Shown here piece after piece: positions 3,799 to 62,115 of a stretch of 64,000 bases of DNA. The position numbers and the translations under genes were made by a program. Each line of letters starts with the position of its first letter. The stretch's first letter is position 1. Under the pieces are notes generated by a model. The model ran no database searches, was not told the DNA's origin, and was given only the letters and a program-made list of their open reading frames with translations. Source of the DNA: Clostridia bacterium (GTDB lineage Bacteria; Bacillota; Clostridia; Oscillospirales; CAG-272); the NCBI GenBank assembly GCA_017453205.1, contig JAFTKO010000012.1:70530-134529 (forward strand), given 5' to 3'.

Positions 3799-4633
3799 AA
3801 AAAATCCGCCCGAAAGATCGGCGGAGCGATTGGAAATACTGGAACGAATCCGCAAGCTGGAGGCAGAGGGCGGGGAGAGCTACTATGTGGACGTGGAGCC
3901 CGATCCGTGCGGTCCCGAGCTTGGTCCCGATGATGTGGATTATCTGCGCATCAAGCCGAGAAACAAGTTCAAAACCTTTTGGGCGCGCAGGATGGCGTGG
4001 ATTTTGCACCGTATCTTCCGTAAGGATTTGCAAATGACGGTGGTGGGAGAAGAGAATCTGCAAAACATCCGAGGCGGTGCCATCATTACCAGCAATCATT
4101 TCAGCATTTACGAAAATCTCGCGGTATGGGAGGTTGCAAAACGCGTCCCGGGCAAGCACCGTTTTTATCGCGTCATCAAGGGGCTTAATTATTATCAGCC
4201 CGGTTGGGTGGGCTTTTTGATGAAGAACTGTGACACGCTTCCCTTGAGTAAAAATCTCAAGACCATGCGTCTTTTGGGTGAGGCGTTGGGGCAAATTTTG
4301 AAGGATGACGGGCTTGTATTGGTCTATCCCGAGCAGGCGATGTGGTGGAATTACCGCAAACCGCGTCCTCCCAAAGCGGGGGCGTACCATTACGCCGCAA
4401 AATTCCATGTACCCATCATTCCGTGCTTTGTTACCATGGAGGATACCGACCGTTTTGATGAACACGGATTTCCAAAACAGAAATACACCATTCACGTCAT
4501 GCCGCCGCTCTATCCCGATCCCGACAAGACCGCGCGTGAGAACGAGCGCGCAATGCAAGCTGAAAATTACCGCCTGTGTTGCGAAAAGTATCGCGAGGTG
4601 TATGGGGAAACGCTCGAAATACAAAACGCATAA
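3788..4633 (+). CDS. lysophospholipid acyltransferase family protein (PlsC-like), second copy
   Basis: ATG 3788 overlaps the GT8 stop (3796-3798) by 11 nt. Motifs ITSNHFSIYE and LVLVYPEQAMWWNY. Confidence 0.7.
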   Translation: MKHKKNPPERSAERLEILERIRKLEAEGGESYYVDVEPDPCGPELGPDDVDYLRIKPRNKFKTFWARRMAWILHRIFRKDLQMTVVGEENLQNIRGGAIITSNHFSIYENLAVWEVAKRVPGKHRFYRVIKGLNYYQPGWVGFLMKNCDTLPLSKNLKTMRLLGEALGQILKDDGLVLVYPEQAMWWNYRKPRPPKAGAYHYAAKFHVPIIPCFVTMEDTDRFDEHGFPKQKYTIHVMPPLYPDPDKTARENERAMQAENYRLCCEKYREVYGETLEIQNA

Positions 4634-4669
4634 TATAAAGTACTAAATTCATAATGAAGATTTTGAAGT

Positions 4670-4852: not shown

Positions 4853-4879
4853 ATTTTGCAAAATTATTTGGAGGAAGAA

Positions 4880-5422
4880 ATGAGTATTTATGATTTCAAA
4901 GTAAAAGCACAGGACGGCAGAGAGGTTTCTCTTTCCGATTATCGGGGCAAGGTCCTTTTGATCGTCAACACGGCAACGGGGTGCGGATTTACGCCCCAGT
5001 ATGATGCATTGCAGGATCTGTACGACGCGCATCATGATGCAGGCTTGGAAATTTTGGATTTCCCCTGTAACCAGTTCGGTGAGCAGGCACCCGGCGACGA
5101 TGAGGAGATTCACTCTTTCTGCACAGGTCGCTACGGCATCACATTCCCACAGTTTTCCAAGGTCGATGTCATCGGTGAGCATGCCATTCCTCTGTTTGCA
5201 TGGCTTTCCGAGAACAGCAAATTTGAGGGCTTTGGCAAGAGCCCCATGGCTCTGATGATGAACGGTGTTGCCAAAAAGATGGATAAGGACTTTAAGAAAA
5301 ACGGCGCGGTTAAATGGAATTTTACCAAGTTTTTGATCGATCGTGAGGGCAATATTGTTGCCCGCTTTGAGCCTACCGCCTCGATGAAAAGCGTTGCCGA
5401 ACAGGTCAAGGCGGTACTGTGA
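4880..5422 (+). CDS. gpx: glutathione peroxidase (Cys-type)
   Basis: Start moved to ATG 4880 (GGAGGA SD). MSIYDFKVKAQDGREVSLSDYRGKVLLIVNTATGCGFTPQY and FPCNQFGEQAPG are classic GPx blocks. Confidence 0.88.
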   Translation: MSIYDFKVKAQDGREVSLSDYRGKVLLIVNTATGCGFTPQYDALQDLYDAHHDAGLEILDFPCNQFGEQAPGDDEEIHSFCTGRYGITFPQFSKVDVIGEHAIPLFAWLSENSKFEGFGKSPMALMMNGVAKKMDKDFKKNGAVKWNFTKFLIDREGNIVARFEPTASMKSVAEQVKAVL

Positions 5423-5685
5423 TGCGCTGTGAATATCAAACCGAAAATACCTGTGCACAGCTCATCCGCTTTGATCTGGAGGGAAACATTGTCCGCAACA
5501 TCGAGTTTTTGGGCGGTTGCAACGGCAACCTCAAAGCCATCGCCAAGCTGGTGGACGGCTGGACGGTGGAAAAAATTGAGGAAATGCTGGCGGGCAATAC
5601 TTGCGGGCGCAGACCGACCTCCTGTGGCGATCAACTGGCGCGGGCGGTACGCGCGGCTTATGAAAAAGCGGTAAAATTGTCATAA
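5422..5685 (+). CDS. TIGR03905-type small Cys-rich TSCPD-domain protein
   Basis: ATG 5422 shares one base with the gpx TGA (gTGATG). 87 aa: MRCEYQTENTCAQLIRFDLEGNIVRNIEFLGGCNGNLKAIAKLVDGW...GNTCGRRPTSCGDQLA. Family call from memory. Confidence 0.7.
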   Translation: MRCEYQTENTCAQLIRFDLEGNIVRNIEFLGGCNGNLKAIAKLVDGWTVEKIEEMLAGNTCGRRPTSCGDQLARAVRAAYEKAVKLS

Positions 5686-5689
5686 CGGG

Positions 5690-5728
5690 TTGCATTTTTT
5701 GTTGTTACATGCTATAATATTATGTAAC
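5690..5728 (+). promoter_or_regulatory. ohrR promoter candidate with inverted repeat GTTACAT-N11-ATGTAAC spanning the -10
   Basis: TTGCAT (5690-5695)-18 nt-TATAAT (5714-5719). Repeat arms at 5704-5710 and 5722-5728. Confidence 0.45.
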
Positions 5729-5748
5729 CGAATGCACGGAGGTAGGAC

Positions 5749-6189
5749 ATGGACGATTTCAAATATGATGCTTTAAAGCTAGAGCATCAGATATGCTTTC
5801 CGCTTTACGCCGCTTCGCGTGAGATCATCAAAAGATACAAACCTTTTCTTGATGAGCTCGATTTGACCTATACGCAATACATTGCCATGATGATCCTTTG
5901 GGATAAAAAATCGCTGACCGCAAAGGAAATGGGCGAGATGCTTTATTTGGACTCGGGCACGTTGACACCCCTGCTCAAAAAGATGGAGGAAAAAGGCTTG
6001 TTGAGCCGTTCGCGTTCTCGGGAGGACGAGCGCAATCTGATCGTGACCGTGACCGGGGCGGGGGATTGCCTTAAGGAGCGTGCGACGGATATTCCCGCCA
6101 AGATTGCACAGTGCGCAAGACTGGAACCCGAAGAGGCACTTGCACTATACCGAATTTTGTATAAGATTCTTGGAAAAAACGAGAAATAA
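5749..6189 (+). CDS. ohrR: MarR-family organic-hydroperoxide sensor, OhrR-type
   Basis: MDDFKYDALKLEHQICFPLYAASREIIKRYKPFLDELDLTYTQY...LYLDSGTLTPLLKKMEEKGL. Closely parallels B. subtilis OhrR as I recall it, including the sensing Cys in QxCFxLY. Confidence 0.85.
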   Translation: MDDFKYDALKLEHQICFPLYAASREIIKRYKPFLDELDLTYTQYIAMMILWDKKSLTAKEMGEMLYLDSGTLTPLLKKMEEKGLLSRSRSREDERNLIVTVTGAGDCLKERATDIPAKIAQCARLEPEEALALYRILYKILGKNEK

Positions 6190-7441: not shown

Positions 7442-7555
7442 TGCCGGAAATCTTCCCACAATTATCAAATTTATAACATTTTTAATCTTTACACGCTTTT
7501 TCATGCCGTCGCATACTCTGTATATGAGAACACAAAACCTTTCGGGAGGGGTACT

Positions 7556-8116
7556 ATGGCAACCAAAATTTATATTGATCAAGGTCACAATCCGGAGAAC
7601 CCGAATGCGGGTGCCGAGGGAAATGGCTTACAGGAACAAACCATTACTTACCGTGTCGGTCAAGAGCTGGCAAGCCTGTTGCGTGCCAATCCCGATTTTG
7701 AGGTGCGGCTGTCGCGTCCGACGCCCACCACCTCGTTGGGAACGTCCAATTCCACCAGCTTGCAGGCGCGCGTGAATGATGCCAACTCTTGGGGCGCGGA
7801 CTATTTTATCAGCTTGCATACCAATTCGTCGGATCTTCCCGAGGCGGGCGGCGTGGAGGCATTTGCTTATTCGCAACCGTCACGCGCGTTTTCCTTGGGA
7901 GAGGATATCGTGCAAAATCTTTCCGAGGCAACGGGACTCCGAAACCGAGGGATGAAAGTTCGCCCGGGGCTTTATGTCTTGCGCCGCACCAATATGCCCG
8001 CCGTGCTCGTGGAAATGGGGTTTATCTCCAATCCCTCCGAGGCGGCACTGATGAACAACAATCCCGAGCTGTTTGCACGTGGTATCTATAACGGCATTGT
8101 GGAATATTTGGGTTAA
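7556..8116 (+). CDS. N-acetylmuramoyl-L-alanine amidase (Amidase_3), no signal peptide
   Basis: Start moved from TTG 7406 to ATG 7556 (GGGAGGGG SD). MATKIYIDQGHNPENPNAGAEGNGLQE...ADYFISLHTNS...AVLVEMGFISNPSEA. Confidence 0.8.
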   Translation: MATKIYIDQGHNPENPNAGAEGNGLQEQTITYRVGQELASLLRANPDFEVRLSRPTPTTSLGTSNSTSLQARVNDANSWGADYFISLHTNSSDLPEAGGVEAFAYSQPSRAFSLGEDIVQNLSEATGLRNRGMKVRPGLYVLRRTNMPAVLVEMGFISNPSEAALMNNNPELFARGIYNGIVEYLG

Positions 8117-20916: not shown

Positions 20917-21654
20917 TTATTTCCCGAGTTCTTCCTCGTAAATGGTATCCTCGGAGAGTGTTTGGATGACTGCGGCGCTGAAATACTCCAACGGATCGAC
21001 CTGCAACCCCTTGACGGTCATTTCCATGTGCAGATGGGGTTCCTCGGCAATTTCATGGAGCGCGGTGTCGCCCACATAGCCCAAAAGTTGACCTTGCTGT
21101 ACCTCGGCACCCACCGTAATGTCGGCGGCAAGCTCGGCAGCGAGATTCTTGTAGACCGAGACACAGTCTCCCGCGTGTGTGAGAGCCACACACCAGCCCA
21201 TCATGGGATCCTCCCAAATCTGAGCAACGGTTCCCGCAGCAATGGCGCAAACACTTGCGTTCTCGGCGGTGGCAATATCAATGCCGTGGTGGACACGCCA
21301 TTCCTTTAAGGTCTGCGAAAAGACCTGTACGTCAACGCTGTGCTCCTTGATTAACTTGCCGGAAACGGGGAGTGCGAGCTCGGGGATCACACCGTCATTG
21401 ACGGTGGGTTGGGAGTCCTCACCGTCGTTGGTGTCGGGGGTGGTGTCGTTGGGCGTTTGGATCGCGTCGGTTACCACATTGTCGGTGGGATCTTCAACGG
21501 TTTGGTTCTTTTTGGCACGGTTGGTTGCCGCGGTGACTGCCAGGACAACTGCCAGCGCCAGCAGAATGACGACTGCCGACAGGTAGATGGCGCGGTTGAC
21601 GCGTACCTGCTTCATCTTTCTGAAGAATTGGGATTCTTTCCATTTTTTCCACAT
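20917..21654 (-). CDS. M23 family metallopeptidase, N-terminal membrane anchor
   Basis: TM segment AIYLSAVVILLALAVVLAV. Catalytic blocks HHGIDIA and HLHMEM. Confidence 0.85.
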   Translation of the reverse strand: MWKKWKESQFFRKMKQVRVNRAIYLSAVVILLALAVVLAVTAATNRAKKNQTVEDPTDNVVTDAIQTPNDTTPDTNDGEDSQPTVNDGVIPELALPVSGKLIKEHSVDVQVFSQTLKEWRVHHGIDIATAENASVCAIAAGTVAQIWEDPMMGWCVALTHAGDCVSVYKNLAAELAADITVGAEVQQGQLLGYVGDTALHEIAEEPHLHMEMTVKGLQVDPLEYFSAAVIQTLSEDTIYEEELGK

Positions 21655-58451: not shown

Positions 58452-58540
58452 GCATTTTTATTGCGCTAAGACAAAGTTTTTTGACATCCGTTTCGATACT
58501 GTCTGATTTCAAAATAATTTATCACAAAGGAAAAATTACG

Positions 58541-59479
58541 ATGGAACTGCAAGAATTGCAAACAAAACTTGGAAAAAGAGCCGATCTGGAAGCCGAGCGT
58601 GACGCATGGCTTCAAAAGTGTACCGAGCTTGAGCAACGCTCGTACCGTGAAAAGCTGAATATGGAATATGAGCAATCCGATGTGGAGGCTTTGGAGGGAA
58701 AGACCCTAAAGGCGTTCCTATATACTGCTCTTGGCAAAAAAGAAGAACGCTTGGAGCAAGAAGAGCAGGAGGCTGATGAGGCAAAGCTGCAATACGAGGC
58801 GACATTGGGGGAGTTTGCCGATGCGCAAAAGCAGGTCAAGCGCATCGAGGCAGAGCTGCGTGCGCTGAAAAAGGCGGAACAGGACTATCAAAGCCTTGTC
58901 AAAGAGCAAGCGGAGCACCTCAAAGCCATTGAGCCGCTTCTTTCCGATGCCGATGCGCTGTCACTTTCGTCGTTACGCAAGGAGCTGGAAGAGGAACGGT
59001 GTAAGCAGGAGCACCTCGAACATGCGCTTGAGGAAGGAAATAAGCTTGCAAAATATGCAGAGAACGTGATGGAGTCACTCCGAAACGCTAGGGAAGAAGC
59101 CAAACATGATCGCTATATGGCAAGGGATGAGGAGCTGAATGAGGCACAGGAGCGTTTTAAACTCGTGCAGATTCAATTTCAGCGTTTTTACGAAGCGATG
59201 CCAGGTGCCGCAATGCGCCTTTCCGTTGATTTTCAGTTCAAGGTAAAAGGCGTTAGTTTTGATGAACAGCAAAGTGTTTTGGAGAATGCTTATCAAGCGG
59301 GTCAATATCCGATGAATGACGTGAATGTTGGTTATCCTTGGTTAAAAACGGAAGCCTTTGCAAGTAAGCTTCACGTTGTCTTGGGGGATTTGGATGAAGC
59401 GTTGGAGCTTACAAAGCGAAAGCAAAGCCAATTGGAGATAAGGCTTTCGGAGCTGTTGCAAAAATACCAAGCAATGTGA
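58541..59479 (+). CDS. hypothetical coiled-coil protein
   Basis: ATG 58541 (AAAGGA SD). 312 aa, highly charged with heptad-like E/K/L/Q-rich sequence. No family recognised. Confidence 0.55.
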   Translation: MELQELQTKLGKRADLEAERDAWLQKCTELEQRSYREKLNMEYEQSDVEALEGKTLKAFLYTALGKKEERLEQEEQEADEAKLQYEATLGEFADAQKQVKRIEAELRALKKAEQDYQSLVKEQAEHLKAIEPLLSDADALSLSSLRKELEEERCKQEHLEHALEEGNKLAKYAENVMESLRNAREEAKHDRYMARDEELNEAQERFKLVQIQFQRFYEAMPGAAMRLSVDFQFKVKGVSFDEQQSVLENAYQAGQYPMNDVNVGYPWLKTEAFASKLHVVLGDLDEALELTKRKQSQLEIRLSELLQKYQAM

Positions 59480-59519
59480 TCTATTTGCGTTTGATTAAAA
59501 ATTTTTTTGAAAAAAACTA

Positions 59520-59548
59520 TTGACAAATCCCTCCTTTTCATGTATAAT
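59520..59548 (+). promoter_or_regulatory. consensus sigma-A promoter of the DUF2325 operon
   Basis: TTGACA (59520-59525)-17 nt-TATAAT (59543-59548), with an A/T-rich UP-like tract upstream. Confidence 0.65.
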
Positions 59549-59556
59549 AAAGAAAA

Positions 59557-59707
59557 AAAGGTTAGCATACGCTAACCTTTGGTTTGAAACAAAAGTTAGC
59601 AGAAACTAACTTTTGAAAAGCGTATAAAAATACGTGAAAAACAAAAAATAAATTTAAAAATGCCGACCGGCATTCTTTTTTGAGAACAAGGTTAGCGATG
59701 GCTAACC
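59557..59707 (+). promoter_or_regulatory. leader with three GTTAGC/GCTAAC hairpin-palindromes and an internal terminator-like hairpin
   Basis: AAAGGTTAGCatacGCTAACCTTT at 59557-59580. AAAAGTTAGcagaaaCTAACTTTT at 59591-59614. AATGCCgaccGGCATT+CTTTTTT at 59659-59681. GGTTAGCgatgGCTAACC at 59690-59707. Confidence 0.55.
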
Positions 59708-59730
59708 AATAAATGGAAAAGGAGAAGAAT

Positions 59731-60018
59731 ATGAGTGTTGTGATTGTGGGAGGAAACGAATGTATGTCGCGCCGTTATATCGAGCTTTGCAAATCTTACA
59801 ATTGCAAAGCAAAGGTCTATCCTTTGATGAAAGGAGAAATGCGCGATTTTGGTACGCCGGACCTATTGGTACTTTTTACAGGGACTGTCTCCCATAAGAT
59901 GGTACATTGTGCCATGAGCAAAACGCGAGGCAAGGATACGCGGGTGGTACGCTGTCACAGTGCGTCGGTCACCGCGCTCAAAAGTATTATGGACGAACAC
60001 TGTGCACAGGAGGCTTGA
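59731..60018 (+). CDS. DUF2325 domain protein
   Basis: ATG 59731 (AAGGAG SD). MSVVIVGGNECMSRRYIELCKSYNCKAKVY...DLLVLFTGTVSHKMV. Family from memory. Confidence 0.72.
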   Translation: MSVVIVGGNECMSRRYIELCKSYNCKAKVYPLMKGEMRDFGTPDLLVLFTGTVSHKMVHCAMSKTRGKDTRVVRCHSASVTALKSIMDEHCAQEA

Positions 60019-60019
60019 G

Positions 60020-60565
60020 ATGTCGGAACGCATGCTCATTCAACATTGTTCTCCCACGTTGGCGGGGCTCAAAACCGGGAATTTGTTTTCCTGTTCCTAC
60101 CAAAACGTCCAAGAGATGCGCGCATGTCTGCGCACATTCAACCGCCGTCTTGGCAAAAAGGGGTTACGTGTTCTGCCTGTAAAGTATCATGAGGGGCGGG
60201 CGCTGATCTATGTTTACCGTCCCAAGCAGCTCGCACGGGATTTGTATGACGACTCGGCGCGGCAGATTCTCGGCGCGCGGGGATATTCCTGCGACAGTCC
60301 CGAAAAGTGTATTGTGCAATTGGTACGCCGCTTGCAGGCGGCAGAGGATTTTCCTCATGAGATCGGCTTGTTTCTCGGTTACCCGCCCGAGGATGTCAGC
60401 GGCTTTATCGAGGGCGCGGACTGTAAATACAGCGGTTGCTGGAAGGTGTACGGCGATGAGGAACAAGCCAAAGCACTGTTTGCAAAATACAAAAAATGTA
60501 CCGCGGTGTACGCGCGGCACTGGGAAAACGGCAGAACCATTGAGAAATTGACGGTGGGCGGGTGA
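60020..60565 (+). CDS. DUF3793 family protein
   Basis: ATG 60020 (AGGAGG SD, 1 nt after the upstream TGA). HCSPTLAGLKTGNLF and FPHEIGLFLGYPPEDVSGFIE...GCWKVYGDEEQAKALF. Family from memory. Confidence 0.72.
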   Translation: MSERMLIQHCSPTLAGLKTGNLFSCSYQNVQEMRACLRTFNRRLGKKGLRVLPVKYHEGRALIYVYRPKQLARDLYDDSARQILGARGYSCDSPEKCIVQLVRRLQAAEDFPHEIGLFLGYPPEDVSGFIEGADCKYSGCWKVYGDEEQAKALFAKYKKCTAVYARHWENGRTIEKLTVGG

Positions 60566-60658
60566 CTGCTGTATTAAAAAAGCCTTTGTGAAAACGAACA
60601 TGTTCCCTTGCCTCGGCATACACTGTGTTTGAAAATCCATTTTCAACGAGGTGCGTAT

Positions 60659-61150
60659 ATGTACAGAGGACAGGACTTTCCGCGCTTTTTGCCTATGATC
60701 CGTCAAAGACCGCAAGCTTGGGCGGAGCTGAAAGGGAATGAATTTTATCCCAACATCCGAGGGAATGTTCGCTTTTATCAAACGCGGTACGGTGCGATCG
60801 TCGTATCGGAGTTTTCGGGACTGCCGCAGGTGACCGAGAGCTGCAGGAGTCCGATCTTCGGATTTCATATTCACGAGGGAAACGATTGCGGCGGAACTCC
60901 CGAAAGACCGTTTGCCAACGCGCGTACCCATTATAATCCGTCGGGATGCAGACATCCGTACCATGCGGGAGATATGCCGCCCATCTTTGGCGCGAACGGA
61001 ATTGCATTTTCGGCGTTTTTGACCGACCGTTTCCGCGTGGATGAGATTGTGGGCAGAACCGTGATCCTGCACGATGCTCCCGATGATTTTACCACACAAC
61101 CCTCGGGCAACGCCGGAGCGATGATCGCTTGCGGCGTGGTACGAAGATAA
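60659..61150 (+). CDS. Cu/Zn superoxide dismutase-family protein, no signal peptide
   Basis: ATG 60659 (GAGGTG SD). GFHIHEGNDCG, THYNPSGCRHPYHAGDMP, ILHDAPDDFTTQPSGNAGAMIACGVV. Confidence 0.8.
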   Translation: MYRGQDFPRFLPMIRQRPQAWAELKGNEFYPNIRGNVRFYQTRYGAIVVSEFSGLPQVTESCRSPIFGFHIHEGNDCGGTPERPFANARTHYNPSGCRHPYHAGDMPPIFGANGIAFSAFLTDRFRVDEIVGRTVILHDAPDDFTTQPSGNAGAMIACGVVRR

Positions 61151-61160
61151 AGAGAAAAAA

Positions 61161-61197
61161 GAACCGTCGCACATTTTTGCGTGCTTCGGTTCTCTTT
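61161..61197. terminator. bidirectional terminator between the SOD-like and PAP2 genes
   Basis: GAACCGtcGCAC-atttttgc-GTGCttCGGTTC with an A-run upstream and TCTTTTT downstream. Confidence 0.62.
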
Positions 61198-62115
61198 TTA
61201 TAATTTTTTTCCTAACCTTGCAAAAAAACGAAAGCTCAAAGGCCAAAGCAGACCTGCCGTCAAGACCATGATGAGATAACGTACAAAGCCGCCTATCGAG
61301 GCACCAAACAGCGCATTGAGCGGTGTTTTGAGAAGCGACTTGATCAGAACGATGACGGCGAGTCCTCCAGCCACTTTTAAAATTTGCGCCCACCAAATGG
61401 CATGAGTCTCAAAGTGGATATATTTTTGATCGGTCGGATAGATCAAGCAGATACCTACGACCGCCGCAAACAGTTTCCATGCCACCTCTTTGGCATTGGT
61501 TAGGTTTACCGCGTCCACATCAGTGGGGAATTGCCACAGCTCCACATACAACAGGTTGCCAAGCGCCAGCAAAAACGCGCATGCGATGATGCCATACATT
61601 ATGCGTGGGTTTGTCCTCGCTCTTTCCATGATGGGGTAGATTACCAATACAAAAGCAGTACCGATGACAAGGGAAACCAGCACATCCTTGGGGGTGTGTA
61701 CGCCGAGGTACATTCTCGAAAACGCGATCAAAAGGAACAGCACCACACCGCCGACCTGTACCGCGCTCCGCTTGGACGAGCGTGCAATGCCGCCGTAAAG
61801 ATTGACGGCAATCTGTGTATGACCGCTGGGGAACGAATATCCCGTCGCTTCGGCTCGCGCACTTTCCACAATCGTGAAGTTTGGATCGAGCACCCAAGGG
61901 CGTGGGACGCGGAACATCATTTTCAAAAATTGAATGCAAACCGTCCCACAAAAGCCTGTAAACAGCAGATAATAGCCGCGGTGCTTATCCACGCACCAAA
62001 AAAAGGCGAGGGCAACGATCATAAAGAGCATTTCGGCGCCCAAATATGTGATACCGGAGATCAGTGCGTCCAAAAACGGCGTGCGAATACTTTCCAGAAG
62101 TTTTAGCAATTCCAT
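61198..62115 (-). CDS. PAP2-family phosphatase with a C-terminal multi-TM extension
   Basis: PSGHTQIAV and SRMYLGVHTPKDV motifs; 305 aa, about 8 TM segments. Confidence 0.8.
   Translation of the reverse strand: MELLKLLESIRTPFLDALISGITYLGAEMLFMIVALAFFWCVDKHRGYYLLFTGFCGTVCIQFLKMMFRVPRPWVLDPNFTIVESARAEATGYSFPSGHTQIAVNLYGGIARSSKRSAVQVGGVVLFLLIAFSRMYLGVHTPKDVLVSLVIGTAFVLVIYPIMERARTNPRIMYGIIACAFLLALGNLLYVELWQFPTDVDAVNLTNAKEVAWKLFAAVVGICLIYPTDQKYIHFETHAIWWAQILKVAGGLAVIVLIKSLLKTPLNALFGASIGGFVRYLIMVLTAGLLWPLSFRFFARLGKKL

Follow-up and report, generated by a model that had tools for sequence, protein, structure and literature searches.

Among described bacterial proteins, those closest to the leaderless copper/zinc superoxide dismutase (Cu/Zn SOD)-family protein analyzed here are the periplasmic SodC enzymes, such as 7b4o, P. 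leiognathi SodC (1bzo/1yai) and E. coli SodC, which combine the Greek-key beta-barrel of the Sod_Cu family with four copper and four zinc ligands, a secondary-bridge Asp, a disulfide pair and the short electrostatic loop of prokaryotic forms. Firmicutes also harbor a non-canonical SOD-fold protein, B. subtilis YojM (1s4i/1xtm/1u3n), an exported lipoprotein in which two copper ligands are missing and which is inactive. The gene under study lies in a stretch of 64,000 nt (hereafter the window) of contig JAFTKO010000012.1 (assembly GCA_017453205.1, positions 70,530 to 134,529), from a Clostridia bacterium of the Oscillospirales lineage CAG-272, where it follows two genes encoding proteins of the DUF2325 and DUF3793 families. 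We refer to it as the SOD-like gene.

Several described systems bear on the regulation of this locus. Coat enzymes dependent on the sporulation factor sigma-K (C. difficile CotCB, CotD and CotE; B. subtilis SodA and the copper laccase CotA) are leaderless, are made in the mother cell and act as metal-dependent enzymes, or as enzymes that detoxify reactive oxygen species (ROS), on the spore surface; the described ones include no Cu/Zn-type SOD, and the SODs described from spores are of the Mn/Fe type (SodA). In C. difficile, sigma-K is required for two coat catalases, CotCB and CotD, and for the peroxiredoxin CotE, and the sigma-K consensus consists of AC at -35 and CATATAAT at -10; the -10 element of sigma-E is nearly identical, but its -35 element reads ATA (PMC3789822). 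The DUF2325 family is represented by C. jejuni Cj1384c, which belongs to the katA cluster, is regulated by PerR and responds to ROS more strongly than any other gene, with a 352-fold induction (PMC9426514). Finally, DtxR/IdeR repressors recognize iron boxes of the TTAGGTTAGCCTAACCTAA type at the promoters of iron-uptake and DtxR-family genes, an example being TTAGGTTAGCCAAACCTTT (PMC524172).

A preliminary description, made from the sequence of the window, had presented the three genes as a tightly coupled unit for which a metal-handling or redox role was suggested. The analysis reported here favors instead, with a rough probability of 0.55 for the explanation as a whole, two independent units that are adjacent only in the source species: a SOD-like gene with a sigma-K-type promoter and a separate DUF2325-DUF3793 pair assigned to a putative metal regulon. 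The main interest of the locus is a widespread clostridial clade of leaderless Cu/Zn-SOD proteins with a conserved sigma-K-type promoter, rather than the adjacency of the three genes.

Results

Fold and metal ligands of the SOD-like protein

The product of the SOD-like gene matches the Sod_Cu family (PF00080) over model positions 2-133 of 133 (E = 1.2e-23, gathering cut-off 28.9 bits). An AlphaFold2 (AF2) model built on the family alignment is of high confidence (mean pLDDT 90.4, pTM 0.86), and its top 50 Foldseek matches in the PDB are all Cu/Zn SODs or domain II of CCS, with template-modelling (TM) scores of 0.7-0.82. The best of these are Cu/Zn SODs, periplasmic SodC enzymes among them, with TM scores of 0.76-0.82, headed by 7b4o from Bacteroidetes (0.76/0.82). 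In an alignment of 27 family sequences the copper ligands H70, H72, H91 and H138 (human His46, His48, His63 and His120), the zinc ligands H91, H99, H102 and D105 (human His63, His71, His80 and Asp83), the secondary-bridge Asp D142 (equivalent to D124) and the disulfide pair C77/C158 (human Cys57-Cys146) are all invariant. The assignment of metal ligands and disulfide Cys residues that the preliminary description had made by eye is hence correct, and the protein has a genuine Cu/Zn-SOD fold together with the full ligand set of periplasmic SodC and a short electrostatic loop of the prokaryotic kind. The invariance of ligands, D124-equivalent Asp and disulfide across the clade points to selection on the metal site.

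Several features separate the protein from its described relatives. Unlike periplasmic SodC, it has neither signal peptide nor lipobox, and it bears a conserved N-terminal extension of 17 aa (YPNF..LL..RPQAWA) and a 7-residue insertion preceding GFHIH. That insertion contains C62, one of two additional invariant Cys residues that had gone unmentioned so far. The other, C97, opens a shortened zinc sub-loop (C97-x-H-P-Y-H-A-G-D), in which two residues intervene between the first two zinc-only ligands instead of eight (H99-x2-H102 vs H71-x8-H80). The clade as a whole further departs from periplasmic SodC in carrying Lys (here Met) for the active-site Arg and a promoter of sporulation type. Scores against the NCBIfam SodC equivalogs NF007628, NF047632 and NF047631 reach 23-34 bits for cut-offs of 165-250, and by sequence the SOD-like proteins form a distinct clade that is not orthologous to the named SodC families. 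YojM, which aligns to residues 66-161 (E ~1e-9), is likewise a non-canonical Firmicutes member of the fold, but the SOD-like protein retains every ligand and lacks a lipobox.

Domain architecture varies among more distant relatives. P0374 (1748 aa), P0405 (1323 aa), P0383 (1018 aa), P0440, P0458 and P0485 contain 3-10 tandem Sod_Cu-like stretches per polypeptide, and some tandem relatives bear signal peptides. Leaderless members P0469, P0482, P0498, P0502 and P0451 are fused to long extensions; in the leaderless fusion proteins (260-636 aa) Pfam found no second domain, and hence no clue to localization. P0478 has a PNMPGATLPGT repeat region at its N-terminus, several of the fusion proteins appear phage- or plasmid-like, and the metagenome-assembled genome MGBC152544 encodes two leaderless paralogues on separate contigs (loci L001 and L013).

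Absence of a signal peptide

The lack of a signal peptide, noted in the preliminary description, is borne out by hydropathy: the maximum 10-residue mean on the Kyte-Doolittle scale is 0.11 in the N-terminus of the SOD-like protein, compared to 2.99 in E. coli SodC, and no lipobox was found there. Initiation further upstream would be possible only at TTG 60608, which would extend the protein by 17 non-hydrophobic residues. As this extension does not resemble a signal and homologues begin at MYRG/MNRN, that start was discarded. The trait extends to the closest homologues, 118 of 120 of which are devoid of a hydrophobic N-terminus, while in the other two the high score stems solely from a strand within the mature domain. 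Judged by its N-terminus, the protein is not exported via Sec or as a lipoprotein and is not a classical periplasmic SodC. The earlier view of a non-periplasmic protein stands to this extent; its further step, a cytosolic protein with a metal-handling role in a new pathway, is not supported, since synthesis in the mother cell, as argued below, is the better explanation of its location.

The active-site Arg position

Alignment with phmmer/HMMER to solved Cu/Zn SODs superimposes GNAGAMIACG on GNAGAR(V/L)ACG, placing Met155 at the position of human SOD1 Arg143 and corroborating the substitution that had been read by eye. Its standing as a defining trait is another matter. In the 120 closest homologues, which share 55-65% identity and are nearly all 157-178 aa long, this column holds Lys in 104 sequences, Met in 9 and Arg in 7; the best 150 representatives of 50%-identity clusters give 65 Lys, 31 Arg and 12 Met, and single-domain cluster representatives alone 35, 15 and 5, respectively. 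Met is a recurrent minor variant at a normally basic, mostly Lys, position, and the absence of Arg is no family trait. In human SOD1, Arg143Lys retains about 40% of activity and neutral replacements about 10%. Because these mutants keep partial activity, a slower but active enzyme is the default expectation for the Met155 protein.

The promoter of the SOD-like gene

The SOD-like gene is preceded by a 93-nt spacer (60566-60658) that contains an entire sigma-K-type promoter element (Table 1), with CATA beginning 42 nt 5' of the ATG. A CATAnnnT element is located at -46 to -28 in most SOD-like loci, and within -60 to -20 it is present in 63 of 77 loci, as against 27 of 564 other genes on the same contigs (Fisher p = 2e-51). 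When upstream regions are aligned on this element, an A (43/63) and a C (44/63) emerge 19 and 18 nt upstream, yielding AC(C)-N16-gCATAtaaT. The full AC-N16/17-CATAnnnT motif occurs in 53/77 SOD-like loci and 20/564 controls (p = 7e-42), the control genes having been searched over the wider window of the two, and in only 1 of 32 regions upstream of DUF3793 units. No two SOD-like upstream regions are more than 70% identical, so conservation of the motif does not merely reflect shared DNA ancestry. Both the spacing and the extended -10 element gCATAtaaT agree with the C. difficile sigma-K consensus, and the SOD-like gene shares with sigma-K coat genes the combination of AC at -35 and CATAnnnTA at -10. 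Predicted structure in the spacer is unremarkable (z -0.67) and includes no terminator; a strong hairpin with a T run follows the gene. We found no description of this clade and its sigma-K-type promoter in the searchable literature, and searches for Cu-Zn SOD with spore coat or exosporium in Clostridium, or for COG2032 with sporulation, returned nothing relevant.

Other genes in the window may bear on sporulation. A leaderless Amidase_3 gene (7556-8116 within region 7493-8116, + strand; 186 aa; best NCBIfam match CwlD, under cut-off), of the typical mother-cell kind (CwlD/CwlC-like), carries the same sigma-K-type element, AC-N17-CATACTCT, 45 nt 5' of its ATG. A SpoIIQ-like membrane-anchored M23/LytM protein (20917-21654, - strand; full-length, 75.5 bits against a cut-off of 250) suggests an endospore-forming host. 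None of the core spo genes could be recognized with certainty in the 64-kb window, and the related loci sampled all come from Clostridia. At 4856-6189 (+ strand), genes for a glutathione peroxidase, a TSCPD-domain protein and a MarR-family regulator stand in a row and may constitute a further unit directed at oxidative stress; the sigma-K-like motif located at 4610-4636, some 220-250 nt upstream of the row, is too far away for assignment.

Conservation of the gene neighborhood

A scan for signature peptides of the clade, using one genome per species, recovered at least 592 loci, of which the best 80, on 80 Clostridia contigs from different species, were analyzed. Carriers that have been cultured include Pseudoflavonifractor sp. 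and Vermiculatibacterium agrestimuris (loci L030 and L037). Within 6 kb of the SOD-like gene, tblastn located DUF2325 or DUF3793 in none of these 80 loci, even at an E-value of 10, and clustering of the flanking open reading frames (ORFs) identified no conserved neighbor of any kind in this sample. Conversely, none of 80 metagenomic DUF3793 loci contains a SOD-like gene. The trio was seen only on contigs of the source species, ten of which yield identical products of 95, 181 and 163 aa in public gene calls. The nearest DUF3793 relatives outside the species stand in the arrangements FeoB_associated-DUF2325-DUF3793 (70% identity) and DUF3793-flavodoxin (66%). A functional link among the three genes, proposed initially from their adjacency, is therefore not upheld by the two reciprocal surveys (0/80 in each direction) or by the conserved promoter that the SOD-like gene has of its own, and the neighborhood is not conserved beyond the source species.

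Within the window, the local arrangement is as first described: ORF coordinates and public gene calls agree on three ORFs in one strand with gaps of 1 and 93 nt, and profile searches place all three products in their expected Pfam families well over gathering cut-offs. Tight coupling applies to the DUF2325-DUF3793 junction (TGAgATG) and not to the SOD-like gene, which lies beyond a spacer with its own promoter. The DUF2325 start was set at 59731, the ATG at 59713 being discarded because it precedes the GGAG ribosome-binding site. Immediately upstream of the pair, 58481-59479 (+ strand) encodes a coiled-coil protein of 332 aa (312 aa in public gene calls), for which neither our own scan nor the public calls returned a Pfam family and NCBIfam gave only a weak SMC-like match.

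Table 1. Coordinates of genes and regulatory elements at the locus (positions in the window)
Feature	Position	Strand	Remarks
Consensus sigma-70-type promoter, TTGACA-17-TATAAT	59520-59548	+	12/12 matches; equivalents precede the first palindrome in related loci
Palindrome 1, GGTTAGC-ATAC-GCTAACC	59560-59577	.	Directly 3' of the -10 element (operator position)
Palindrome 2, AGTTAGC-AGAA-ACTAACT	59594-59611	.	Degenerate copy, 34 bp past palindrome 1
Intrinsic-terminator-like hairpin and T run in leader	59659-59681	+	Similar hairpin between palindromes in most related leaders
Palindrome 3, GGTTAGC-GATG-GCTAACC	59690-59707	.	23 nt 5' of the DUF2325 start codon
DUF2325 gene	59731-60018	+	95 aa; Pfam 94.3 bits; public gene calls agree
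DUF3793 gene	60020-60565	+	181 aa; Pfam 196.3 bits; AGGAGG within the 3' end of DUF2325
Sigma-K-type promoter of SOD-like gene	60598-60625	+	AC 60598-60599, 17 nt, CATACACT 60617-60624
Shine-Dalgarno GAGGTG of SOD-like gene	60648-60653	+	Read off the sequence
Leaderless Cu/Zn-SOD-family (Sod_Cu) gene	60659-61150	+	163 aa; Pfam 84.4 bits
ATG codon of Met155, at the active-site Arg position (human SOD1 Arg143)	61121-61123	+	HMMER alignment
Hairpin and T run 3' of SOD-like gene	61160-61200	.	Common to convergent PAP2 gene; -19.6 kcal/mol, z -4.4

The DUF2325-DUF3793 pair and its palindromes

The leader of the DUF2325-DUF3793 pair contains three palindromes, which are the only such sites in the window; the SOD-like gene has none. 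Their distribution was examined in the 80 DUF3793 loci, collapsed at 90% identity into 33 lineages and allowing up to one mismatch per site. Of 32 non-redundant lineages, 25 have at least one palindrome in the 250 nt preceding DUF3793 or the DUF2325-DUF3793 pair; these regions upstream of DUF3793 units make up 3.3% of the sequence and hold 37 of all 53 sites. Other sites, with Pfam-confirmed downstream genes, precede feoB (8 loci), feoA, genes for DtxR-family (3 loci) and Fur-family regulators, and genes for a ZIP transporter, HMA-domain proteins and a P-type ATPase. Judged from these sequence contexts, the sites seem to mark a metal regulon, not described before, in Clostridia and Erysipelotrichales of the gut, and the best reading of the pair is that it belongs to such a metal-responsive, probably iron, regulon.

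Gene contexts are in keeping with this assignment. DUF2325 stands immediately 5' of DUF3793 on the same strand in 10 of 33 non-redundant lineages, as it does in 3 of the 5 DUF2325 contexts that are independent. In 27 of 80 loci the gene directly after DUF3793, within about 20-40 nt, encodes a short-chain flavodoxin (as in L096, L167, L169 and L172). The DUF2325 contexts comprise FeoA-FeoB-DUF2325 and three arrangements beside an AraC-family gene, namely DUF2325-DUF3793-flavodoxin-methyltransferase-HMA-ferritin, DUF2325-methyltransferase-HMA and DUF2325-DUF3793-flavodoxin. Cj1384c resembles the present protein in being a small Cys-rich DUF2325 protein encoded beside an antioxidant enzyme gene and subject to metal/peroxide regulation (PerR); it differs in that its partner is a catalase and its host belongs to Campylobacterota, whereas the clostridial partners are DUF3793, flavodoxin, FeoAB, HMA and ferritin. 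The 64-kb window itself encodes no DtxR, FeoA, FeoB, Fur, ZIP, flavodoxin, AraC or HMA protein detectable by tblastn at E < 1e-3.

The architecture of the leader is conserved across species: a sigma-70 promoter, GTTAGC-N4-GCTAAC after the -10 element, a terminator-like hairpin and a second palindrome some 15-25 nt 5' of the ribosome-binding site (examples are L081, L085, L090, L094, L096, L106, L116, L117, L126, L133, L157, L167 and L168). Tandem palindromes 33-34 bp apart recur across loci L081-L160 and L167-L173, and sites can be seen, for instance, at L107 1092/1126, L111 6040-6104, L128 752/786, L133 2617/6760, L155 4285/6158 and L157 4861/4913. In the window and in most related leaders the first palindrome lies directly 3' of a strong sigma-70 -10 element, and thus in a classical repressor position; in the window it covers the presumed region of transcription start. 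The half-sites GGTTAG/CTAACC are those of DtxR/IdeR boxes; in the 19-bp DtxR/IdeR palindrome TTAGGTTAG-N-CTAACCTAA, however, the core spacing is 1 bp and not 6 bp, and the sites described here differ further in being arranged in tandem at ~33-34 bp or flanking a leader terminator.

The two palindromes of a leader can also pair with each other in RNA (minimum free energy z -6). An RNA-hairpin reading of the sites was nonetheless disfavored, as the stem is conserved by sequence rather than by covariation and the motif precedes unrelated genes as well; C.A mismatches are common at positions 6/11, and flanking positions pair in 17 of 28 sites by manual count. A DNA operator is favored on these sequence patterns, although, given the leader terminator, a mechanism at the RNA level is conceivable. 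The leader belongs to no known RNA family, a scan of 59300-61400 against Rfam at E-values up to 1 producing no match.

Invariant residues include C11, C20, C25 and H55 of DUF2325 in 12 orthologues paired with DUF3793, and H9, C10, C97 and FPHEIGLFLGYPPEDV of DUF3793. Searched by sequence against the PDB, DUF3793 had no match and DUF2325 produced only noise. For DUF3793 the AF2 model was of low quality, its mean pLDDT being 63.9 and its best-conserved segments (10-17 and 120-145) falling below 50, and it had no Foldseek match at E <= 0.001, so that no fold was assigned; literature searches on DUF3793 and CAC1363 retrieved nothing relevant.

Discussion

We propose that the locus combines two separately regulated units. 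The SOD-like gene would be monocistronic and transcribed from its own sigma-K-type promoter, late in the sporulating mother cell, and its product, probably a spore protein to judge from this promoter, would be deposited in or on the spore coat. Synthesis in the mother cell followed by deposition on the spore would explain the absent signal peptide, with no need for a new cytosolic pathway. The conserved ligands, D124-equivalent Asp and disulfide pair suggest that the protein most likely still dismutates superoxide, with Met at the Arg position expected to slow the enzyme, and its role would be to shield the spores of a strict anaerobe from oxygen, much as the leaderless, mother-cell-made coat enzymes act against ROS on the spore surface. 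The DUF2325-DUF3793 bicistron, in turn, would be transcribed from the consensus sigma-70 promoter, with the 1-nt gap suggesting translational coupling. The palindromes may be bound by a dimeric repressor that responds to metal, a DtxR-family protein being the likeliest candidate, and the pair would be switched on alongside feoAB and flavodoxin when metal, probably iron, is scarce. What the sequences show directly are the domain identities, the conserved ligands, the absent leader peptide, the missing linkage across species and the conservation of both DNA motifs; the sigma factor, the repressor, the spore location, the bound metal and the catalytic activity are inferred, and both regulatory assignments derive from sequence consensus only.

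A number of observations weigh against this proposal. The sigma factor is assigned from a short consensus whose -10 element is nearly the same for sigma-E, between 14 and 24 of the 77 SOD-like family members lack the motif, and some carrier taxa may not sporulate. On the side of the DUF pair, the palindrome has 6 bp between GTTAG and CTAAC where classical DtxR/IdeR boxes have 1 bp, AraC-family genes adjoin more often than DtxR-family genes, and a simple repressor model does not account for the conserved leader terminator. Lastly, DUF3793 is not separated from the SOD-like gene by a terminator, which makes read-through from the metal-regulated promoter physically possible; such read-through could co-express the SOD-like gene in the source species.

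This last point also fits the preliminary description, by which DUF2325, DUF3793 and the SOD-like protein would form one co-transcribed module for metal handling or redox, the Arg-less cytosolic fold not dismutating superoxide and serving, for example, in metal buffering or transfer with its Cys-rich partners. All three genes are indeed on one strand, the spacer is free of terminators and the gene order does not vary within the species; the SOD-like gene follows DUF3793 at the place usually taken by flavodoxin (the window has no flavodoxin), and Cj1384c sets a precedent for a DUF2325 protein accompanying antioxidant enzymes (PMC9426514). We regard a single module as improbable, however, in view of the absence of cross-species linkage in either survey, of a family-wide promoter unaccompanied by a palindrome, and of catalytic ligands that are invariant in a family whose members normally carry Lys or Arg, and only in a minority Met, at the Arg143 position. 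Species-specific co-expression is conceivable, but it would not restore a conserved functional module.

Somewhat less improbable, yet still unlikely, is that the SOD-like protein works in vegetative cells as a truly cytoplasmic enzyme of anaerobic Clostridia, with AC-N17-CATAnnnT serving sigma-E, an extracytoplasmic function (ECF) sigma factor for stress or another regulator. The missing signal peptide is compatible with that location, and the motif is short, with sigma-E and sigma-K -10 elements that can hardly be told apart, and the case for sporulation is indirect. The -35 element speaks against this rival: it reads AC (43-44 of 63), the sigma-K form, where sigma-E has ATA; spacing and gCATAtaaT fit the C. 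difficile sigma-K consensus, and the leaderless Amidase_3 of the window, a gene of mother-cell kind, carries the same motif. Vegetative bacteria, moreover, are not known to have any cytoplasmic copper enzyme. The lowest credence goes to a catalytically dead or structural protein comparable to YojM or CCS domain II, employed as a coat building block or a metal store. Met at the Arg143 position, the shortened zinc sub-loop and the scores far under the SodC equivalog cut-offs lean in that direction, as do the occurrence of YojM and CCS domain II among the structural and sequence matches and the invariant C62 and C97, which could form another site. Unlike YojM and CCS domain II, though, the clade preserves the copper and zinc ligands, the bridging His, the D124-equivalent Asp and the disulfide without exception, and in the majority of members Lys or Arg occupies the guidance position. 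A sigma-K-type SOD-like gene beside a separate metal-regulated pair thus remains the explanation we prefer.

Conclusions

Adjacency in a single species, as at this locus, is a poor guide to function, and annotation should heed that warning. For DUF2325 and DUF3793, the analysis provides a testable physiological context, a metal (probably iron) regulon with FeoAB and flavodoxin and not with SOD. The natural alternation of Lys, Arg and Met at the Arg143 position supplies a ready-made test of how important electrostatic guidance is in this family. The broader picture, which we hold tentatively and at somewhat less than even odds, is that of a large, apparently undescribed clade (at least 592 species-representative loci) of leaderless Cu/Zn-SOD-fold enzymes in spore-forming Clostridia, located on the spore coat and dependent on sigma-K, alongside a new GTTAG-N6-CTAAC metal regulon with DUF2325-DUF3793(-flavodoxin), as their sequences would suggest. 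The DUF-module regulon would display an unusual architecture, with a leader terminator set between operators. The clade, marked by Lys (sometimes Met) for Arg, a truncated zinc loop and, at C62/C97, maybe an additional metal or disulfide site, would represent the first known case of a Cu/Zn-type SOD that is synthesized and receives its metals within a bacterial cytoplasm, raising the question of how copper enters the protein within the mother cell. If the SOD-like protein is indeed a sigma-K spore protein, a Cu/Zn enzyme would join the Mn/Fe SOD, Mn catalases, peroxiredoxin and rubrerythrin described so far in the oxidative defense of spores of strictly anaerobic gut Clostridia.

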